NCBI GenBank assembly: GCA_963663235.2
Contig: CAXXNO010000011.1
Coordinates: 1-64,000, forward strand
DNA: 64,000 nucleotides
DNA from: Dehalococcoidia bacterium
Lineage (GTDB): Bacteria; Chloroflexota; Dehalococcoidia; Bin125
Reading direction: 5' to 3'
A program made the translations under genes and the position numbers. The notes beneath the pieces were generated by a model. The model was not told the origin of the DNA. It saw only the letters and a program-made list of their open reading frames with translations, and ran no database searches. Positions 27,174-42,648 of the stretch are shown here, in pieces (the first letter of the stretch is position 1; each line of letters opens with the position of its first letter).

Positions 27174-27413
27174 CCGCCTGGAGTGGCCGCATATTCCATC
27201 CGCCGGCCCGCGGGTCCCGAATCGCGGTCGTGAGAGGCTCGAACCGCACGACCTGGCCGAGTTCGGCACGCGGATGGAGGTTTGAGCCACCACAGGTGCG
27301 CGGGGCGGGCTCGCCCGGCTCGACGAAGTCGTTGCGGCCAAGCAGGGGCCGCTCTCGCGCCTTGTGCCGACCTGCCCCGCGCCGCTCCGGCGACCGCGCG
27401 GGGAATGACTGTG

Positions 27414-27804
27414 ATGCGCCTGCGCGCCTATCTGATCACAATGGTCATCGCCGGCGCGGTGGCCGCCCCGCTCTTCGGCATCGTGCGTAGCGACAGCTTC
27501 CCTATCTCCACCTATCCCATGTTCGCCAGCGCGCGCACATCAGAAGTCGCCATCTCCCACGCGCTCGCCGTGCGCACCGACGGCGAGCGGCGTCCGTTGC
27601 CACCATCGGCGGTGGCGAACGCGGAAGTCATTCAGGCCTTTGAGACGGTGCGGCAGGCTCTCCGCCAAGGGCCCGAGGCGACGCAGGCCCTCTGCAACCG
27701 CATCGCGGCGGGCCTCGCTCACTCGGGCGGACAGAGGGGGACGAAGCGGGTGGAGATCGTGACGGACCGCTTCGACGCGGTCTCGTACTTCAAAGGCGAC
27801 ACCC
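27414..27804 (+). pseudogene. Membrane-anchored hypothetical protein, C-terminus cut by IS3 insertion
   Basis: TM segment then DSFPISTYPMFA; frame runs into the IS3 left end at 27805. Confidence 0.6.
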
Positions 27805-29046
27805 TGACCTGCCCCCCCAGAACCGGTCCAGATCCTGTGCGAGGATTCGGGCCGGTGCGAAGGGAGTCGGCATGGCACGCAAGCGGTACGCGGCCGAGGA
27901 GATCATCGGCCACCTGCGGGAGGCGGAGGGGGTGCTCGCGCCGGGGGAATCGGTCGCGCCGGTCGCGCGCCGCCTCGGCGTGGCCGAGCCAACGTATTAC
28001 CGCGGGCGGCGGGAGGACGGGGGGCTGCGGGTCGACCCGGCCAAGCGGCTGAAAGAACGGGAGCGCGAGAACAGTCGGCTGAAGCGGGTGGTGGCCGATC
28101 AGGCGCGGGCCAACGCGATGGTGCGGGACGTCGCAGCGGGAAACTTCTGAGCCCGGCCAAGCGGCGCCGGGCGACATCCTACCGCACGGACCCGTACGCG
28201 GTGTCGGAGCGGCGGGCCTGCCCGGTCACCGGCCAGGCGCGGGCGACCCAGCGCGACGTGCCCCGGCCGTCCCCGGATGCGCCGGCGCTGATCGCGCGCA
28301 GCGTCGCGCTGGCCCCCCGCTGCGGCCGCTACGGCTCCCGTCGCATCCCGGCCCGGCTGCGCCAGGCGGGCTGGCGGGTGAACCCCAAGCGGGTCGAGCG
28401 GCGCTGGCGTCAGGAAGGCTGGCGGGTCCCCGGGAAGCACCCCCAACGGGGCCGCCGCTGGCTCGCGGCCGGCTCGCTGGTGCGGCGGCGGGCCGAGCGG
28501 CCGTCCCACGTCTGGTCCGACGCCTTCGTCTTCGACCGCACCGCCGATGGGCGCCCGGTGCGGATCCTCGCCCTCGTGGATGAGGACCACCCGCGAGGGC
28601 CTGCGTCTCGACGTCGCCCGCCGACGGCGCCGCGACGTCGGCCTGGCGCGGTTGGCCCAGCTGTTCGTCGAGCGCGGGCCGCCGACGTTTCTGCGGTCCG
28701 CCAACGGCCCGGCGTGCACCGCCACCGCGGTGCGGGACTGGCTGCACCGGGTCGGGGGCACGACCCGCTTCATCGAACCGGGCAGGCCTTGGGCGAACGG
28801 CTCTGGGGAATCGTTCAACGGCAAGCTGCGCGACGCGTGCCTCAATCGCGAGCGCTTCGACACCCTGCTGGAAGCCCAGATCCTCATCGCGGGCTGGCGG
28901 CGGGAGGACAACCCGATCCGCCCCCACCGTGCCCTCGGCTCCCGCCCCCCCGCCCCGGAAACGCAGCAACCCCGGGAACGTCCCATGACGCGCGTCCCGG
29001 CGATCGGACTCACTTAACGACTGGTACAACGATCGGGGGCAGGTCA
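27805..29046 (+). mobile_element. IS3-family element, hypermutated and inactive
   Basis: TIRs TGACCTGCCCCC / GGGGGCAGGTCA; orfA 27872..28150; GGGAAAC slippery site 28138-28144; orfB with +1 frameshift near 28587 and mutated DDE motifs. Confidence 0.93.
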
Positions 29047-29343
29047 CTGGAGGAGCAGCGCGGCGACGTCGCGGAAGCGGAGCGTGTACCGGAGACGCCA
29101 GAGTACGGCGAGCAGGACGATATCCGTCGGGTACTGGAGATCGTTGACCGGGGCGCCGGTCCGCTCGTTGAAGGTCCTCCGGCAGGCGCGGCACGCGGAG
29201 GTGCGGTAGCCGAGGGCGGTGCGCCGCCGCCGTCGGCTGGTCTCTCCGGAGCCCCAGTGGGGACAGTCCACAAGCAGTCCTCCCCAGGTCGCTGGTGAGC
29301 GCGACGCTAGCAGAGGACCCGTGGTCTGAGATCTGACGGAACC
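29047..29343 (-). mobile_element. IS6-family 5' fragment truncated by IS3
   Basis: TIR GGTTCCGTCAGATCT at the right end; RTALGY...FNERTG...NDLQYPTDIVLLAVLWRLRY. Confidence 0.88.
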
Positions 29344-29375
29344 CGCCTGCCGGTTCTCAGGATGGGAACGGGGTC

Positions 29376-30269
29376 GTGAGCAGCCAAACGCAAGCATACC
29401 TGTACGCGGGAGGTGCGGTTCTCCTGTGGGCGACCGCCGCGTCGGCGTTCAAGGTGTCGCTGCGCTACGTCGAAGCGCCGCACATGCTGCTCTACGCGAC
29501 GATCGTATCGACGCTGGTGCTGCTCGCCGTCGCGGCCTGGCAGCGCAAGCTGGGGCAGGCGCTGATCGGTTCGCCCAAGCAGTATCTGCGGTCGGCGGCG
29601 CTCGGCCTCCTCAACCCGTTCCTCTACTACCTCGTGCTGTTCGAGGCTTACGACCGTCTGCCCGCCCAAGAGGCGCAGCCGCTCAACTATGCCTGGCCCA
29701 TGGTGATCGTGATCCTCTCGGTGCCGCTGCTCAAGCAGCCCCTGGGCAGGATCTCCCTGGCCGCGATCGCGGTGAGCTTCTGCGGCGTGCTCGTGATCGC
29801 GACGCGCGGCGACCTGCTGGCCTTTCGCGTGAGCGATCCGGTCGGCACGGCCCTGGCGGTCGGCAGCGCCTTCATTTGGGCCACGTTCTGGCTGACCAAT
29901 GTCCGGGACGACCGCGATGCCGTCGTCAAGCTGCTGCTGAACTTCGCCTTCGGATTGGTGTTCGTTCTCGCCGCGGCCTTCGCCCTGGCCGGCCCGCCGC
30001 CTCTGGACCTGCGCGGCATCGGAGGATCGGCGTACGTCGGCGTCTTCGAGATGGGCCTGACCTTCGTCCTCTGGATGCGCGCCCTCTCGCTCTCGCGGAC
30101 GACCGCGCAGGTCAGCAACCTCGTCTACCTATCGCCGTTCCTCTCGCTCATCCTCATCAACATCATCGTGGGGGAGGCGATCCGGCCGTCCTCGGTGATC
30201 GGTCTGCTGCTCATCATCGGTGGAATCGCCATCCGCCGCTTCGATCGGACCGCGCCGCGACCGGTCTGA
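29376..30269 (+). CDS. DMT/EamA family transporter
   Basis: About 10 hydrophobic segments; LNYAWP, LVYLSPFLS. Confidence 0.9.
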   Translation: MSSQTQAYLYAGGAVLLWATAASAFKVSLRYVEAPHMLLYATIVSTLVLLAVAAWQRKLGQALIGSPKQYLRSAALGLLNPFLYYLVLFEAYDRLPAQEAQPLNYAWPMVIVILSVPLLKQPLGRISLAAIAVSFCGVLVIATRGDLLAFRVSDPVGTALAVGSAFIWATFWLTNVRDDRDAVVKLLLNFAFGLVFVLAAAFALAGPPPLDLRGIGGSAYVGVFEMGLTFVLWMRALSLSRTTAQVSNLVYLSPFLSLILINIIVGEAIRPSSVIGLLLIIGGIAIRRFDRTAPRPV

Positions 30270-33044: not shown

Positions 33045-33876
33045 GGTTCTGTCAGAACACAGGGCACGGATGACGCGCAGTGAAGCCCCTCACTGTTGCC
33101 CTGTCTACGCCGCCGCCATTTCGGCGATCAGTGCATGCCAGCGCCCGACGAAGCGTCGTCGCTGCTCGGCCAGGGGGACGCCCTCGCCGCGGCGACCGCG
33201 AGCGCGCAAGTACTGGCGGAGCTCCTCAAACGCCGAGCAGAAGCGTGCCGCTGAGGCGAAGCTCCCGAAACCGAGCATCGGGTCATCGCGCTGCTGCACC
33301 GCGCGGTGGTCCTGTTCCGTGAGGTTGTTGCGGTATGGATTCGTCCGGTGCACGACCTTCCGTCCCAGGATCCAGCGGATCGCTCTGCGGTACGGCGGAG
33401 GCTGGTCCGTGGTGACGCGCGGCGGCTTGCGCTCGGCCACGTCAACGAGTCGCCGCAGGAAACGCCGCGCGGCGTGCTTGTCGCGGTGCTCGCTGCGCAT
33501 GGAGTCGAGGAGCACCCCCTCGCGGTCGATGGCGCGGTCGAGAGAGCACCAGCGCCCGGCGCCCTTCACGGAGGTCTCGTCCAGGGACCAGGAGCCGCCG
33601 GCCTGGCCGCGCCGCTTCGCTCGCAGCGGGTCCGCGAGCCGCGGGGCGAAGCGGACCTCCCAGGCGCGGATCGGCTCGTGCGTGACCTCGAAGCCGCGCT
33701 GGAGGAGCAGCGCAGCGACGTCGCGGAAGCCCAGCGTGGAGCGGAGACGCCAGAGCACGGCGAGCAGCACGATGTCCGTTGGGTACTGCAGATCGTTGAA
33801 GGGCGTGCCGGTCCGCTCGTTGAAGCGCCGCCGACAGGCCTGGCAGCGGAACCGCCGGGAGCCGAGTGCGGTGCGG
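33045..33876 (-). mobile_element. IS6-family element, 5'-truncated and hypermutated
   Basis: TIR GGTTCTGTCAGA at 33045; DET, TTD, EQDHR motifs; interrupted by the IS at 33877. Confidence 0.92.
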
Positions 33877-34998
33877 CCGTGGGGCGGCAAAACCTCATGC
33901 GGCCCACCGATACTCATGATGCAACCCTCCTAGCACCGGCTTGCTGTCGACTCGCTGGCTCGGCATCCGCTGCATCGGCTTGCGTCCCTCCGGAGAGTCG
34001 AGCGCCAATGACCGATGCGGCCGCATCGCGTTGTAGTGCTGGACGTACTCACCAAGCACCCGCCTCAGATGCCGTTCGTTGACGGCGATGACGTGATCGA
34101 GGCACTCGCGCCGGAGCGTCCCGATCACCCGCTCGGCGATGGCGTTGGCGTTCGGCGCGCGCACCGGAGTCAGAATCGTCTCGATCCCGATCCGTCGAGC
34201 GCGTGCGATGAAGTCCCCGCCATAGCTACGGTCGCGGTCTCGGATGAGGAACCCTGGCTGCTCACCCCAGACGGTCGCCTCGATCATCTGCCTCCAGATC
34301 CAGGGCGCGATCGGGTGCTCCGTGACGTTCCAGTGCCGGATGCGGCGCCGGCCGTGGTCGATCACGACGAACACGTAGAGCGTGCGGAAGGTGAGGGTCT
34401 GCACCGTGAACAGGTCAGCAGCCCAGATGCTGGACGGGTGGTTGCGCAGAAACGTGCGCCACGACTGACTCGGCGGTCGCCGGAGCGCCTGCTGACGGTA
34501 GCGGCTCACGGTGCGAGCGCTCACGTCGAAGCCAAGCGCACGCAGCTCACCAACGATGCGGACGGCGCCGCACCATGGATTCTCAGTGGCGATGCGCAGG
34601 ATCAGCCGCTGCCACTCGGCGGGAATGTGGGGACGCCCAGGTCCGCGACGACTCTTCCAGCGCCAGTAGGCGCGCCAAGCAGAACGATGCCACCGCACAA
34701 CCGTGTCCGGCTCGACCATCACGAGCGTGCCTCGCCAGCCGGACCAACCGCGTGCCAGTAGTGACCAGAATCGGCGGTCGTGGCGACGGAGCCGCAGTCG
34801 ACGACGGCCCCGGGTGTAGACGGCGAGCTGATGCCGCAGCGCTAAGTTCTCGAGGACGAGATCTCGGCGGGCGCGGACCGAAGCGAAGAGTGCTGCGACA
34901 AGCAGACGGAGGTAGAGCACAGACGAGCCTCTCGTGGCTCGCCGATACTCTGCTATCTCAGGACAGAGCTGCACCTATCAGGTTTTGCCGTCCCACGG
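33877..34998 (-). mobile_element. IS481/IS3-like element, near intact (transposase 33895..34920)
   Basis: TIR CCGTGGG(G/A)CGGCAAAACCT at both ends; WAADLF, IRDRD, AERVIGTLRRECLD, YNAMRPH; flanks GTGCGG / GTACGG. Confidence 0.92.
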
Positions 34999-36544: not shown

Positions 36545-36715
36545 GCGCCGGTGGAGGGTCGCGCCCCCAGCCGCGCAGCGGTCGAGCATCGCCAGCGCTG
36601 CCTCGCGCTCGGCGTAGCCGCTCGCCTGGGTCAACTCGACGTCCAGCACCAGGCCGTGGCGGTTCTCGGTGAGCAGATGGCCCAGGTAGCAGAGCTTCGC
36701 CGTCTGTCTCCGGGC
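36545..36715 (-). mobile_element. IS5-family transposase internal fragment
   Basis: Translates AKLCYLGHLLTENRHGLVLDVELTQASGYAEREAALAML. Confidence 0.7.
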
Positions 36716-36768
36716 CGTGGGGCGGAGCCTCCCGAGCGGAGGGAGCCGCGCCCGCGATCTCCTCCCCC

Positions 36769-38004
36769 TTGCAGGTGGAGCAGCTGCCGATCGCGGATCT
36801 CCATCCCGATCCGGGCAACCCCCGCCGCATCGGGGAGGACGAACTGGCGGCCCTGACCCGCTCGATCGCCACGTTCGGGGTCGTCGACCCGGTGCTCGCC
36901 CGCCGCGCCGACCGGCGCGTGATCGCCGGCCACCAGCGGCTCGTCGCCGCCCGCCGCGCTGGCCTCACGACGGTGCCGGTGATCCTGCTCGACCTCCCGG
37001 CGGAGGACGCCCGGCTGCTCAACGTCGCCCTGAACCGGATCGGCGGGGAGTGGGACGCCGACCTGCTGGCCCGCCTGCTGATCGACCTGCGCACCACGGC
37101 GGACCGCGACCTGACGCTGAGCGGCTTCGCCGAGGCCGATCTCCAGGACCTGCTCACTCGCTTCGACCAGCGGGAGAAACGGGCCCGCCCGGAGCGGTTC
37201 GACCTGGACGAGGCGCTGGCGGCGGTCGACCGCGAGGCCAGCGGGATCGCCCCCGGCGCCGGCTGGCAGCTGGGCGCGCACCGCCTCTTCCGGGGCGACG
37301 CCACGGACGCGGCGTTCGTGGCCCGGTGCCTGGGCGACGGGCCCGCGGCCCTGGTCTTCACGGACCCGCCCTACAACGTGGCCTACGGCGCCCACGGCGG
37401 CCGGGCGGCCGACGCGCCCGCCCGGCGCCTCGTCAACGACGCCATGCCCGAGGAGGAGTGGGAGCGCTTCTGCCGGGCCTGGGCGGTGAGCCTGGCGGCC
37501 AACGCGGCCGGCGCCCTGTACGTCTGCATGAGCAGCAAGGAGTGGCCGGTCGTCTGCCGCGCCCTGGCCGAGGCCGGGGCGCACTGGTCGGACACGATCA
37601 TCTGGGCCAAGGACCGCTTCACGCTGGGCCGGGCCGACTATCAGCGCCAGTACGAGCCGATCTGGTACGGCTGGCCCCAGGGGACCACCCGTCAGTGGCA
37701 GGGCGGGCGCGACCAGAGCGACGTCTGGCACATCCCGCGTCCCGCCGCCTCGCCGCTGCACCCCACCCAGAAGCCGCTGGCCCTGGTCGAGCGGGCGATC
37801 GCGAACTCCAGCACCCCCGGCGCCACGGTCCTGGACCCCTTCTGCGGCGCGGGCACGACGCTGATCGCCTGCGAGCGCACCGGGCGCCGGGCCGTCGGGG
37901 TCGAGATCGACCCGCGCTACGTGGCGGCCACGATCGCGCGCTGGGAGGCGTTCACGGGCGCGGCCGCCGTGCCCCTGGAACCGAGGGAGGCGACCGATGG
38001 CTAG
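36769..38004 (+). CDS. ParB-like N-terminal domain fused to N4/N6 DNA methyltransferase (phage type)
   Basis: NPR...IAGHQRL (ParB); TDPPYN, HPTQKP, DPFCGAGTT. Confidence 0.92.
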   Translation: MQVEQLPIADLHPDPGNPRRIGEDELAALTRSIATFGVVDPVLARRADRRVIAGHQRLVAARRAGLTTVPVILLDLPAEDARLLNVALNRIGGEWDADLLARLLIDLRTTADRDLTLSGFAEADLQDLLTRFDQREKRARPERFDLDEALAAVDREASGIAPGAGWQLGAHRLFRGDATDAAFVARCLGDGPAALVFTDPPYNVAYGAHGGRAADAPARRLVNDAMPEEEWERFCRAWAVSLAANAAGALYVCMSSKEWPVVCRALAEAGAHWSDTIIWAKDRFTLGRADYQRQYEPIWYGWPQGTTRQWQGGRDQSDVWHIPRPAASPLHPTQKPLALVERAIANSSTPGATVLDPFCGAGTTLIACERTGRRAVGVEIDPRYVAATIARWEAFTGAAAVPLEPREATDG

Positions 38005-38392
38005 CCGTCCCGCCTGCCAGGCACTGACCCAGAACGGGCGCCCCTGCCGGGCGCCGTCCCTGCGCGCGGGCAGCGCCTGCTTCTGGCACGCGCCCGAGTC
38101 CCGCGAGGACGCCACCGAGGCGCGCCGGCTGGGGGGCCTGCGCCGCCGGCGCGAGGGCACGGTCGGGGGCGCCTACGGCCTGGAGGGGTTCCGCACGGAC
38201 GCGGATCTGCAGCGCGTCCTGGAGCTGGCGCTGACCGACACGCTGGAGCTGGAGAACTCGATCGCGCGCGCGCGGGCGCTGGCCCACCTGGTGTCCGTCG
38301 GGGTCCGGGTCAAGGAGACCGCGGAGTTCGAGGCGCGCCTGCGGGCGCTGGAGGTGGGCGTGGGGCGGGAGGCCTCCGATGCGGGGCCGTGA
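37997..38392 (+). CDS. Phage/satellite hypothetical protein with N-terminal C-x9-C-x10-C-x2-H motif
   Basis: CQALTQNGRPC...CFWH; ends EARLRALE; start overlaps the MTase stop. Confidence 0.7.
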   Translation: MASRPACQALTQNGRPCRAPSLRAGSACFWHAPESREDATEARRLGGLRRRREGTVGGAYGLEGFRTDADLQRVLELALTDTLELENSIARARALAHLVSVGVRVKETAEFEARLRALEVGVGREASDAGP

Positions 38393-39101
38393 GCGCCGCC
38401 TCCACACGGTCGCGACCCGCCTGACGGTGCGGCAGCGGGTCGTGGCGCTGCTCGCGGCCGGGCCCGGCGATGCCGTGCTGCGCGACAGCCTCTGGCGCGG
38501 GCTCACGCCGGGCGAGCGGGCCGCATTCCGCCGCGACTGCGCCCGGCTCGATCACCTCGACGCGACCGCGCACCTGTGCCTGGCCTGGGCCGCGGGCCAA
38601 GTCGGCGCGCTGGAGGCGGTCGCGGGCTGGTTCGCGACCGTCCGCCTCGGCGCCGTCCTGGCGGAGTCCCTGGAGGACGCACTTGACTGCGGGGAGCCCC
38701 GTCGCGGCCCGGGCGCGGGCGGCGACGGGGACCTGAACAAGGCGGCGCGCCGGGTCGCGCGCCGGCTGCGGGGTCTGGCGGCGGGCGCGAGCGGCGCCGG
38801 TGGCCGGGAACCGCTGCGGCCGATCCTCGACGCCCGCCTCCGCGCCGGCGTCCCCGAGCTGCACCACCTGCTCCGCGCGTTGGAGATCGAGGTCGCGGCG
38901 TGCGCCGCGGCACTCGGCGCCGATCCGCTCGACCCCGCACTCCAGACCATCGCGGACCGCTGCCGCGCGCGGCTCAGGCCGCTTCCCGATCTGCCCGGGC
39001 TGGACCCGCCCATCGCGCTGACCGAGCCATCCGACGACGATGTCGCCGCGTTCGCCGCCCGCTGCCGCCCCGAGGAGGGTTCGGACGATGCCGCCTGGTA
39101 A
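38379..39101 (+). CDS. Hypothetical protein of the integrative element
   Basis: Overlaps the upstream gene; GGGAGG RBS. Confidence 0.6.
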   Translation: MRGRERRLHTVATRLTVRQRVVALLAAGPGDAVLRDSLWRGLTPGERAAFRRDCARLDHLDATAHLCLAWAAGQVGALEAVAGWFATVRLGAVLAESLEDALDCGEPRRGPGAGGDGDLNKAARRVARRLRGLAAGASGAGGREPLRPILDARLRAGVPELHHLLRALEIEVAACAAALGADPLDPALQTIADRCRARLRPLPDLPGLDPPIALTEPSDDDVAAFAARCRPEEGSDDAAW

Positions 39102-39171
39102 GTTACCGGCCGGACCCCGATCCGATAGCTCCCCTTACCATCCGATACCTCTGGTATCGATCGCGCGGTTG

Positions 39172-40158
39172 CTAAGGGTGGTAAGCCGGGGCGCGGGGGC
39201 CGGAGGGCGCGGGGCCGGCAGCCAGCAGACGGGCGGCGGGGCTGAAGGCGGCGTGCGCATCCGCCGCCTTGGCCGCGTCGTAGGTGGCGGAGTAGCGCCG
39301 CACCATGGCCGAGGTCGAGTGGCCCAAGAGGTACTGCACGTCCAGCTCCCGGGCGTGGTTCTCGATCGCCCAGGTGGCGAAGGTGTGGCGGAAGCGATGC
39401 GGGTTGGCGTGGACGCCGGCGCGCGCGCCCAGCCGGGTGAAGAGAGTGCCCAGGAGGTACGGGTTCATCGGCCCGCGGGGCTTCCTGGAGCGTTCGATCG
39501 TGAGGAACAGCGCCCCCGGCGCCTCGCTGCGGAAGCGCGCGATATAGTCGCGCAGCGCCTCGTCCGGTCCGTCGCCGAAGGGGACCACGCGCTGCTTGCG
39601 GCCCTTGCCGTGGCGGATGTGGATGCGCCGGGTCTCCCAGGACACGTCGGCCAGGGTGAGCCGGTGCAGCTCCGTGTAGCGCAGGCCGGTATCGAGGAAG
39701 AGCAGGATGATGGCCCGGTTGCGGCAGCCGAACTCCGTGGTGGGGTCGCAGACGTCCAGCAGCGCCTGGATCTCGTCCTCGGTGAGCGGCTGGATCACCT
39801 TCTGCTCCACTTTGACGTTGGGGATGCCCGTGAACGGGTTCCGCGCCGTATAGCCCATGCGAGTGCACCAGGAGAAGAAGGCCCGGGTCTCGCGGAAGCG
39901 GCGGTGCCGGGTGCCCAGGGAGACGCCGCCGTCGGCGATGACCTTGAGGAAGGCGTAGATGTGGGCCGGGCGGAAGGCCGCGACCCGATCGGGTAGGCCT
40001 TCGGCGGCGCAGATGGCGCGGAAGCGGCGCAGGGTCTCGGCGTAGGCCTGGACGGTGCGCCGGGTCTTGCCCTCCACCTCGCAGGCCGCCAGGTAGGCCG
40101 CGATCGCCTCATCCAGGCCGGTCCCCTCACCCGGGTCCGCTGCGAATTCCGCCGCCAT
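39172..40158 (-). CDS. Tyrosine recombinase / integrase
   Basis: DTGLRYTEL, GKGRKQR, HRFRHTFA, LLGHS, RRY catalytic residues. Confidence 0.95.
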   Translation of the reverse strand: MAAEFAADPGEGTGLDEAIAAYLAACEVEGKTRRTVQAYAETLRRFRAICAAEGLPDRVAAFRPAHIYAFLKVIADGGVSLGTRHRRFRETRAFFSWCTRMGYTARNPFTGIPNVKVEQKVIQPLTEDEIQALLDVCDPTTEFGCRNRAIILLFLDTGLRYTELHRLTLADVSWETRRIHIRHGKGRKQRVVPFGDGPDEALRDYIARFRSEAPGALFLTIERSRKPRGPMNPYLLGTLFTRLGARAGVHANPHRFRHTFATWAIENHARELDVQYLLGHSTSAMVRRYSATYDAAKAADAHAAFSPAARLLAAGPAPSGPRAPAYHP

Positions 40159-41523: not shown

Positions 41524-42648
41524 TGTGGTGTTTCAAAACCTCATCACGCTGCATCCCAGAAGTACTCATGGTGTAAGCCGCCCAGAATCGGCCGGCTCGC
41601 TAGGCGCTGCGCCCCACCACGGAGCGTCGGCGTCCGCGGACCGGATGGCGGCTGGTCGCCCAGAGACTGGTGGGGACGCGTGTCGTTGTCGTAGGCGACG
41701 TACTCGCGGAGCACCCGCCGGAGATGCCGTTCCGTGAGCACGATGAGATGGTCCAGACACTCTCGCCGGATCGTGCCAATCACCCGCTCCGCGATCGCGT
41801 TGGCTTTGGGGGCTCGCACGGGGGTCAAGATCGTTTCGATCCCCAGGGCCGCCGCCTTCGGCACGAAGTGACCGCCGTCGTTGCGATCCCGGTCGCGGAT
41901 CAGGAAGCGAGGCGCCGTGTTCCACGGGGTGGCGGCGATGATCTGCCGCCAGACCCAGGGCGCCGTGGGGTGCGCGGTCACGTTCCCATGCAGGATCCGG
42001 CGGCGGTCGTGACTGATCACGAAGAAGACGTAGAACGTCCGCAAGGTAAGCGTCTGCACGGTGAAAAAGTCGGCCGCCCAGATTTCGGGGGCATGCAGGC
42101 GCAGAAAGGTCCGCCAGGTGGGCGACGGCGCCGGCCTGATTCGGCGATAACGATAGACCGTTGTGGGACTCACGGGGTGCCCCAGCACAGCTAACTCGGC
42201 TGCGATGCGGCGCACGCCCCACGTGGGATTCTCCGCTGCCAGCCGGTCAATCAGGCGGCGCGTCTCCAGATCGATCCGCACCCGGCCGGGCTGACCGCCC
42301 CGGCTCTTCCAGCGCCAGTATCGGCGCCAGACAAACCGATGCCACCCGATGACGGTCGCCGGTTGAACGAGCTGCAGATGCGCACGCCAGCCGGCCCAGT
42401 TCCGCGCCGTGACGGACCAGAACCGGCGGTCGCGCGTCTGGAGCCGCGGTCGACGTCCGGACCGTTCCCACACCGCCAGCTGCTGGCGCAGAATCAGGTT
42501 CTCGAGGATCAGATCCCGTCGCCGCCGGCCGAGCATTCCCAGCCCGACCAGAAACAGTCGCCAATAGAGCCACATCGCCGTCCCTCCGCGCGAAGACTCT
42601 CTGGCGGACGCGACTCACACAAGGCCGATAGGGTTTTGAAACACCACA
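41524..42648 (-). mobile_element. IS481/IS3-like element (transposase 41544..42575), lightly mutated
   Basis: Perfect TIR TGTGGTGTTTCAAAACC; WAADFF, IRDRD, AERVIGTIRRECLD. Confidence 0.93.

Follow-up and report, generated by a model that had tools for sequence, protein, structure and literature searches.

The stretch analysed here, referred to as the window, comprises the first 64,000 nt of contig CAXXNO010000011.1 from a Dehalococcoidia bacterium (GCA_963663235.2). On its forward strand, at positions 27805 to 29046, the window carries a hypermutated, non-autonomous insertion sequence (IS) of the IS3 family, which is 1242 bases long, has the ends TGACCTGCCCCC ... GGGGGCAGGTCA, and is one of at least 12 full-length, dead copies in this genome (97-100% identity). 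The subfamily to which these copies belong has switched from an ordinary history under purifying selection to the accumulation of almost only A:T>C:G transversions. This switch is limited to the element, is symmetric with respect to strand, affects all codon positions, and removed both catalytic aspartates of the transposase. A first-pass annotation of the sequence had proposed that A>C and T>G changes inactivated this one IS3 copy. Beyond that proposal, we found that at least 12 copies are affected, that the process is specific to the family and recurs in other genomes, and that the flanks are untouched.

The genome holding the window (G000; 2.75 Mb in 14 contigs labelled C1 onwards, 67-70% GC, 92% complete) was the one genome screened as a whole for repeats. 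This screen revealed at least 12 full-length copies at 97.4-100% identity, five partial copies at contig ends, and two copies at 84-85% identity (the 85% pair). The GC content of the 12 copies is 73.7-74.9%, compared with 69% for the 85% pair. Relatives were also found in G003, a genome of another genus of the same family, and in G005, a genome of a third genus. The nearest less-mutated copy, G003a, is 95% identical to the window copy and separated from it by 61 differences: 53 A>C/T>G, seven in the reverse direction, one A>T, and no transitions or C<>G changes. The first-pass annotation had raised the possibility that transitions might prove as common as A>C/T>G changes, but in this comparison the counts were 53 against 0.

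The effect of these changes on the encoded protein is best seen in its conserved motifs. All of the altered motifs named in the first-pass annotation are present in the window, namely WSDAF (28513-28527), SANGPAC (28697-28717), WANGSGES (28790-28813), YYRGRREDGG, NPKRV, REDNP and LGSRPP, and each listed alteration corresponds to a single A>C or T>G when compared with real relatives. The ancestral forms proposed there were recovered in these relatives as WSYDF, SDNGPEF, WENGYVES, YYRWRREYGG, NHKRV and LGYRPP; the seventh, proposed as REYNT, actually reads REYNQ. These ancestral motifs occur in the 85% copies of the same genome, in G003a, and in intact relatives from other phyla. Since close relatives such as the 85% copies and G003a carry the ancestral motifs, the altered residues were not already there in the nearest kin, which had been named as the outcome that would speak against recent change. 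As had been claimed, two of the three DDE residues are lost: the first and second aspartates (GAC>GCC at 28522-28524 and at 28700-28702, respectively) are alanine in 12/12 copies, while the glutamate of GES (28808-28810) is kept. The relatives of the window element carry the D, D, E triad, which is the catalytic one in the IS3 family. With its helix-turn-helix and DDE (rve) domains present and an intact triad absent, the window copy is a dead member of that family.

In other respects the element has kept the anatomy of an IS3-type transposon, including the inverted repeats and slippery site that had been noted before. Its TG...CA inverted ends, with the left terminal inverted repeat core TGACCTGCCCCC at 27805-27816 and the right core GGGGGCAGGTCA at 29035-29046 (both on the + strand), are retained in all copies, and its TGACCTGCCCCC ends suggest a putative member of the IS407 group. 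The + strand gene orfA (27872-28150; 92 aa) encodes an HTH_Tnp_1 domain (PF01527, 56.8 bits) and contains the YYRGRREDGG motif with its W>G and Y>D changes. Just upstream of its stop lies the retained heptamer GGGAAAC (28138-28144, +; G_GGA_AAC in the frame of orfA), presumably a -1 frameshift site judging by the usual layout of the family, and orfB carries on in the -1 frame. The first piece of orfB (28144-28588, +) encodes HTH_21 (PF13276, 36.7 bits) and contains WSDAF. The second piece (28589-29017, +) encodes rve_3 (PF13683, 72.5 bits) and contains both SANGPAC and WANGSGES. NCBIfam NF033516 (IS3 family transposase) matched the pieces with 28, 95.4 and 128.1 bits, although no piece by itself reaches the cut-off of 160 set for the whole protein, and relatives from a plasmid search were named only 'IS3 family transposase'.

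The two pieces of orfB are separated by a frame break at 28583-28591 (+), where ancestral GAGTA-CAC (EYT) has become GAGGACCAC through one T>G change and one inserted C. This is the single indel that the first-pass annotation had placed near 28587, and it was confirmed: the sequence of relatives at this site is GAG TAC ACx (E Y T), and one base is missing at 28587 in contigs of the public sequencing runs X11 and X1. The frame break is found in 11/12 copies and its allele is shared with the 85% copies, but it is absent from the copy at C10:3697-4937, in which the orfB frame is unbroken (VDAYTREG) and both aspartates are nevertheless lost. Because this copy keeps the old frame, the break is not ancestral to all 12 copies.

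Spectrum and distribution of the substitutions

Polarising the 12 copies with the two 85% copies showed that 44 of the 64 changes polymorphic among them are A>C/T>G (23 A>C and 21 T>G), even though A or T makes up only about one quarter of the sites. Reverse changes (C>A or G>T) numbered 3/64, A>T one, and A>G none. Among fixed changes, 35/149 were A>C/T>G against three in reverse. Changes private to one copy were A>C/T>G in 6/14 cases and shared changes in 38/50; the six singletons in 12 copies correspond to about 0.5 private A>C changes per G000 copy.

A parsimony tree of eight of the 12 copies and 12 relatives, based on 1207 ungapped columns and ignoring recombination, showed the switch. 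On the stem branch just before the node joining G003a, G003b and the G000 copies, the changes form an ordinary mix (8 A>C/T>G, 0 C>A/G>T, 21 transitions, 15 C<>G, 0 A<>T), and the deep branches show the usual third-position C<>G changes and transitions. Below that node there were 126 changes, comprising 84 A>C/T>G, 32 C>A/G>T, seven transitions, one C<>G and two A<>T. Exchanges between A and C or between G and T (the AC/GT class) thus make up 116/126 changes of the subfamily. On the one branch that forms the stem of the G000 clade, every change is either A>C/T>G (33) or the reverse (five), and changes go on along every internal branch of the clade. Since direct polarisation gives only 3/64 C>A/G>T, most of the 'reverse' changes on the tree probably represent recurrence or recombination at A>C sites.

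Two further comparisons that do not depend on the tree gave the same picture. Restricting the count to 926 sites at which three little-changed references share the same base gave 34-44 A>C/T>G changes and 5-8 transitions for the G000 copies, 8-9 and 5 for G003a/b, and 48 and 21 for G005b, a member of a separate subfamily in the third genus. A metagenome scan found no close relative of the hypermutated copies (at most 79% amino acid identity), and its five best matches were used as independent outgroups, four of which cover the full element and one, L182, only part of it. Against the four full-length relatives, the window copy shows 58-70 A>C/T>G versus 9-11 reverse changes, and against L182 48 versus 3, giving ranges of 48-70 versus 3-11 over all five. 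The corresponding ranges were 14-28 versus 4-13 for G003a, 7-20 versus 6-15 for an 85% copy, and 20-28 versus 18-28 for the intact sister IS described below. A partial copy of the sister subfamily at C14:1-529 showed 28 A>C/T>G versus one reverse change.

Within the element, both strands are affected alike: on the + strand, 42/201 A sites and 33/158 T sites were hit, which is 21% each. Hits at codon positions 1, 2 and 3 amount to 25/103, 46/188 and 4/40 sites, while the older differences to the 85% subfamily number 19, 7 and 75. The first two codon positions are thus hit no less often than the third, which means that a functional gene under purifying selection lost its constraint and took on a different spectrum. 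Hits are scarce in the first 100 alignment columns, which include the left terminal repeat and are spared in two independent lineages (0/21, as in the window copy, and 1/21 possible A/T sites; p=0.01). No sequence motif was found at the hit sites, only mild preferences: sites followed by G were hit in 37/85 cases and sites followed by A in 8/48 (chi-square p=0.006), and 12/21 sites preceded by T were hit.

Confinement of the bias to the element

The left flank of the window copy (27298-27804, +) is 90% identical to a G003 locus, with homology ending exactly at the start of the IS, and the 51 differences between them are of the ordinary kind (23 transitions, 11 C<>G, 10 A>C/T>G, seven reverse). 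On the right, the IS3 copy cut an IS6-like transposase gene, of which an N-terminal fragment remains at 29044-29397 (-). This fragment is not hypermutated, as A>C/T>G accounts for 1/28 of its lineage-specific changes (measured over 29044-29350). An equally sharp boundary was observed in G005, where G005b has 51/122 changes of the A>C/T>G type and G005a 9/53, although the two are only 4 nt apart.

The two members of the 85% pair are dead and immobile; they have their flanks in common and lie inside a 1.84 kb segmental duplication of 99% identity. Between them there are 12 IS substitutions (seven transitions, three of the AC/GT class, two C<>G) and three in the flanks. In the tree counts, the AC/GT class represents 6/16 changes for this pair versus 116/126 for the subfamily (Fisher p=1e-6), with seven transitions in each. 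When all repeats were compared with one another at a threshold of 90% identity, the AC/GT class accounted for 1895/2374 pairwise mismatches in this family and for 387/2244, with 1182 transitions, in all other repeat families together. Recent duplications of 3.5-10 kb are likewise dominated by transitions. Among 49 copies of 12 other repeat families, 114/2041 lineage-specific changes are A>C/T>G, with a maximum of 17% in copies with at least 10 changes; these families are mostly coding paralogues and not mobile elements, and as such are weaker controls than the flanks and the 85% pair. The same IS group, present in multiple copies in eight genomes of other phyla, has 530 biallelic columns, of which 127 are of the AC/GT class and 257 are transitions. 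Because the group varies in an ordinary manner in these eight hosts, a host factor seems to be needed.

Independent data came from contigs, not reads, of four public runs from four studies, one of which may be the source of the assembly. Among the places listed in this comparison, beyond which there are 73 more, 23/24 inside the IS were A/C or G/T polymorphisms, and at 20 of these a G or C in the window stands against T or A in other contigs. None of the 16 places listed in the flanks (12 left, four right) belongs to the AC/GT class, all being transitions or C<>G. The A/T alternatives are often in the majority in terms of depth, for example T at 28519. Contigs of the runs X10, X11 and X15 contain the left junction of the window copy, at 27804/27805. 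The depth of the IS in public runs is in the hundreds to thousands, compared with 2-36 for its flanks. Runs labelled as sponge metagenomes hold parts of the stretch at small shares, and in X1 the IS is covered while its flanks are not.

Mobility of the element and exchange among copies

The dead copies are accompanied by an intact sister IS whose terminal 12 nt match theirs. One copy is present in G000 (C14:9712-10955; 74% identity to the hypermutated family) and five intact copies, with no substitutions among them, are present in G003. Their layout resembles that of the window element, with the heptamer and with orfB in the -1 frame. The IS itself has travelled: since it is 95% identical between G000 and G003 while the flanking chromosomal genes are 66-76% identical, it must have moved recently between these lineages. 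When copies with shared flanks were sought inside G000 as a check for change in situ, none was found; the only pair with a common left flank is C10:3697 and C12:470872, and their insertion points are 157 bases apart.

Among the 12 copies, the four-gamete test failed for 213/528 pairs of informative sites, and the copy designated G003_84 is a chimera of two subfamilies. Together with the distribution of the frame-break allele, this indicates that copies exchange sequence, that sites are hit repeatedly, or both. A chimeric element was noted at L137 (G003:C1:922372-923621), the first third of which resembles the hypermutated subfamily while the rest is protein-identical to the sister IS; its orfA and orfB are open and it is 91% identical to the sister IS. 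Moreover, a 2061-base composite, in which an intact sister IS is joined end to end with part of a hypermutated copy (bases 423-1242), is present at two G003 loci (L119, 5965-8025, and L120, 5973-8033). As the flanks of the two loci differ, the composite seems to have moved as a unit. The two composites show three differences, which lie within 42 bases and all in the partial hypermutated part.

Origin of the substitutions

We regard as plausible, if somewhat short of probable, a cause in which mutT-type misincorporation takes place during DNA synthesis limited to the element. Because the flanks are spared to within 4 nt and the dead, immobile 85% pair is spared as well, the source of the additional mutations must be DNA synthesis restricted to the element. 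To our knowledge, incorporation of 8-oxo-dGTP opposite A is the one well-known route to almost pure A:T>C:G change. Oxidised dGTP would be put opposite a template A and then be fixed as C:G, and loss of MutT leads to A.T>C.G changes via 8-oxo-dGTP according to PMC13212565. The synthesis in question would not be chromosome replication, but either the replicative copy-out of an IS3-type element or repair synthesis during recombination between copies; these are related possibilities, inseparable here. With an oxidised nucleotide pool, or with a polymerase that accepts 8-oxo-dGTP, copy-out synthesis could make the element mutate much faster than the chromosome. MutY-type glycosylases remove the template A, and such an enzyme would thereby fix the change. 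The copies, which keep their ends, would be moved in trans by the intact sister IS (C14:9712-10955), and a copy would collect hits only as long as its ends remain functional, which would account for the sparing of the ends. The hits would then be shuffled by gene conversion among the copies.

The circle intermediates that copy-out predicts may have left traces. In IS3-type elements, a figure-of-eight is converted into a double-stranded circle, according to PMC3219604 and PMC7780238. Contigs of runs X10 and X11 join position 29046 back to 27803 with two letters between, so that right and left ends abut as in an IS circle or a head-to-tail pair. In G005, the 80% identical G005a and G005b follow one another head to tail, separated by the 4-nt spacer CACG (L022, 1501-3985), an arrangement resembling an IS dimer junction. 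We take both as a sign of activity of the copy-out type. Work on IS911 is reported to indicate that the conversion into a circle is replicative and that it also re-synthesises the donor copy.

Several observations touch on the enzymes that might be involved. A MutY-like adenine glycosylase of 248 aa is encoded at C12:439751-440377 (L124, 1429-2175, -). It is without the C-terminal domain, because it matches only residues 3-212 of 277 of TIGR01084 and 12-218 of 351 of PRK10880. The Y-family polymerases of G000 are a DinB-like one at C6:243629 and the products of two ImuB-like genes, and nothing ties either kind to the IS. The two divergent ImuB-like genes belong to a 9.3 kb duplication of 99.7% identity (C12:54196-63477 and C9:139293-148579), one in each half, and the C12 half is immediately adjacent to the IS copy at C12:52953-54202. 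Elements of the copy-out-paste-in type are acted on by IEE, a PrimPol-helicase (bioRxiv 10.1101/2023.06.07.543989); in G000, no match was found to Pfam PF09250, the sole model searched for an IEE-like enzyme.

A number of results weigh against misincorporation during element-limited synthesis. The best match to the MutT model TIGR00586 reached 34.6 bits against a cut-off of 97.9, although this test is weak, with only 3/14 control genomes passing the model. The five intact sister copies in G003 are without substitutions, so that transposition as such need not be mutagenic; at about 0.5 private A>C changes per copy, however, none in five copies is not very unlikely. The dead copies would require transposase in trans, and many rounds of copy-out would be needed. 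Target-site duplications were found at 0/12 copies in G000 and at 0/5 intact sister copies in G003, the only copies with one being the 85% pair (GACTC on both sides); their lack would be in keeping with frequent recombination among the copies or with insertion by an unusual chemistry. The bias also reaches a second IS family: in an old fragment of an unrelated IS6-like element at 33190-33890 (-) of the window, 14/32 lineage-specific changes are A>C/T>G and one is the reverse (p=1e-9 versus other repeats), and in another at C12:39930-40640 the figure is 7/25. Three other IS6-like fragments are unaffected, namely the one at window 29044-29350 (1/28) and the two at C4:41640-42420 and C4:33440-34170 (0/19 and 2/50 between them), and the IS6-like family moves by a different replicative route. 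Finally, the G000 set and G005b have 20 hit sites in common, versus 9.7 expected, out of 272 (p=2e-4), which points to some site preference that the proposed mechanism leaves unexplained.

Each of the alternatives accounts for part of these data. Element-restricted hypermutation is known from fungi, in the form of repeat-induced point mutation (RIP), as well as from the editing of retroelements and from diversity-generating retroelements (DGRs), and a host activity that recognises the element in place, through homology, its sequence or a guide, and mutates it there would be the bacterial equivalent of RIP: a defence that kills transposase genes. We consider this unlikely. The sharp boundaries of the bias, its recurrence in three genera and several subfamilies, and the loss of both catalytic aspartates in 12/12 copies all speak for such targeting, as do the three differences between the G003 composites, all of which fall in the hypermutated part, even if these could be a single conversion tract given their spacing of at most 42 bases. 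It fits less well that homologous neighbours are not hit together, G005a being little changed next to G005b, that the 85% pair has an ordinary spectrum despite 99% identity over 1.84 kb, that the five intact G003 sister copies are untouched, and that the analysis turned up no candidate gene. A further reading seems more improbable still: the dead copies would simply have decayed neutrally under a mutT-like bias of the whole genome, or during a past mutator episode, with the effect showing only in sequence free of selection. No MutT was found above the model cut-off, the MutY-like glycosylase is without its C-terminal domain, two dead IS6-like fragments are enriched, and private changes are less biased than shared ones (6/14 versus 38/50), all as such a bias might lead one to expect. 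The dead 85% pair, however, has as many transitions as the subfamily (seven versus seven) with 6 AC/GT changes against 116, and the three unaffected IS6-like fragments (0/19, 2/50, 1/28), the recent 3.5-10 kb duplications and the 49 copies of other, mostly coding, families (114/2041) show no such bias. With about one fifth of all A/T sites changed and almost no transitions, we infer that the same load across a genome would be untenable.

Biased gene conversion, in which the MutY-like glycosylase repairs A.G heteroduplex mismatches towards C:G and so spreads rare A>C changes while others drift, is equally improbable as the cause, but it may help the changes to spread. Recombination or recurrence is pervasive (213/528 four-gamete failures), G003_84 is chimeric, A>C alleles reach high frequency among the copies, and the MutY-like gene is present. 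Yet mutations must arise before they can be converted, and at least 55 distinct A/T sites were hit versus about seven transitions on the whole tree. A drive in about 17 copies would raise fixation at most about 17-fold, and we judge the excess over usual bacterial spectra to be far larger. In addition, the single-lineage stem has 33 A>C/T>G changes without transitions, and private changes are still enriched (6/14). Alternatively, a different host, or a vehicle, with a mutT-like spectrum may have been the place where the changes arose, and the copies would then be successive imports or descendants of an imported, already mutated master. We give this no more credence than biased gene conversion. 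Import would account for the 95% identity of the IS between G000 and G003 where flanking genes have 66-76%, for the 33 A>C/T>G changes on the G000 stem before the copies radiate, and for the abundance of the IS in public runs (hundreds to thousands versus 2-36 for the flanks). Import could thus explain the stem but not the later changes on every internal branch of the G000 clade, with 44 polymorphic A>C/T>G sites within one genome, and the load argument raised against a genome-wide bias applies equally to an entire host or vehicle with such a spectrum. Lastly, an artefact of sequencing, consensus calling or assembly is very improbable. The genomes do look like metagenome assemblies, in which repeats are hard to polish, but the bias is limited to one element family and recurs in three assemblies, copies differ at sites with the same local context, the polymorphism is found again in contigs of four runs from four studies (23/24 listed places in the IS versus 0/16 in the flanks), and the A/T states spell canonical protein motifs.

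Comparison with known systems delimits what is new here. The window element shares with the IS3 family its orfA with HTH_Tnp_1, its orfB with HTH_21 and rve_3, the heptamer with orfB in the -1 frame, the TG...CA ends and the match to NF033516. It differs in that the window copy and its 11 full-length siblings are without both catalytic aspartates and 11 of these copies without the frame, in the absence of target-site duplications at the 12 copies, and in its non-autonomous behaviour. In its conserved ends, its many copies without a working transposase and the presence of a related intact element in the genome, it resembles miniature inverted-repeat transposable elements and other non-autonomous IS elements, but the window copies are full length and were inactivated by point changes, not by internal deletion. 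RIP similarly inactivates genes by hypermutation limited to repeated mobile DNA, but it produces C>T transitions in both members of a duplicate and depends on a eukaryotic sexual cycle, whereas the changes described here are A:T>C:G with 7/126 transitions and do not hit neighbouring homologous copies together. DGRs also mutagenise the adenines of a defined DNA segment, but they change A to any base on one strand of a short variable repeat by way of a reverse transcriptase (PMC3521204). In the present case only A>C occurs, on both strands equally (21%) and over 1.1 kb. A mutT mutator shares the almost pure A:T>C:G spectrum on both strands (PMC13212565), but it acts genome-wide, while here the flanks, the duplications and the dead 85% pair are spared; that paper deals only with genome-wide loss of repair genes. 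Within the library searched, we found no report of transposon-restricted A:T>C:G hypermutation in prokaryotes, of bacterial hypermutation of any kind limited to transposon copies, or of a pure A:T>C:G signature anywhere.

More broadly, it is conceivable, though we hold it as a tentative suggestion, that bacteria of this family have a mutation process tied to the element, whether error-prone synthesis during copy-out or repair or an activity that the host devotes to it, which drives A:T->C:G change across transposon copies at 20 times background or more and acts as a prokaryotic counterpart of RIP that disarms transposases and leaves mobilisable shells. If mutagenic synthesis limited to the element is responsible, the fidelity of copy-out would depend on the host, and these copies would provide a natural read-out of the use of oxidised nucleotides. 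If a host activity is responsible, it would represent a new bacterial way to silence insertion sequences. Either way, the process explains the origin of full-length, mobilisable but dead IS shells and shows a mobile element becoming richer in GC (74-75%) than its host (67-70%), and the asymmetry between A>C/T>G and the reverse changes, measured against an intact relative, offers a simple means of spotting further cases.

GC-rich islands as such were considered as a diagnostic and rejected, since the 101 windows with at least 74.5% GC are mostly ordinary genes. The region from 36.6 to 39.4 kb of the window (79% GC) was likewise discarded as a further case, as its partner on C14 shows no asymmetry. 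This region (36600-39400; partner C14:1119-3542) contains an intact open reading frame for a ParB-like/DNA-methylase protein at 36769-38004, together with phage-like open reading frames. Next come a tyrosine recombinase gene at 39172-40158 (-) and a gene for another rve-type transposase at 41544-42575 (-).

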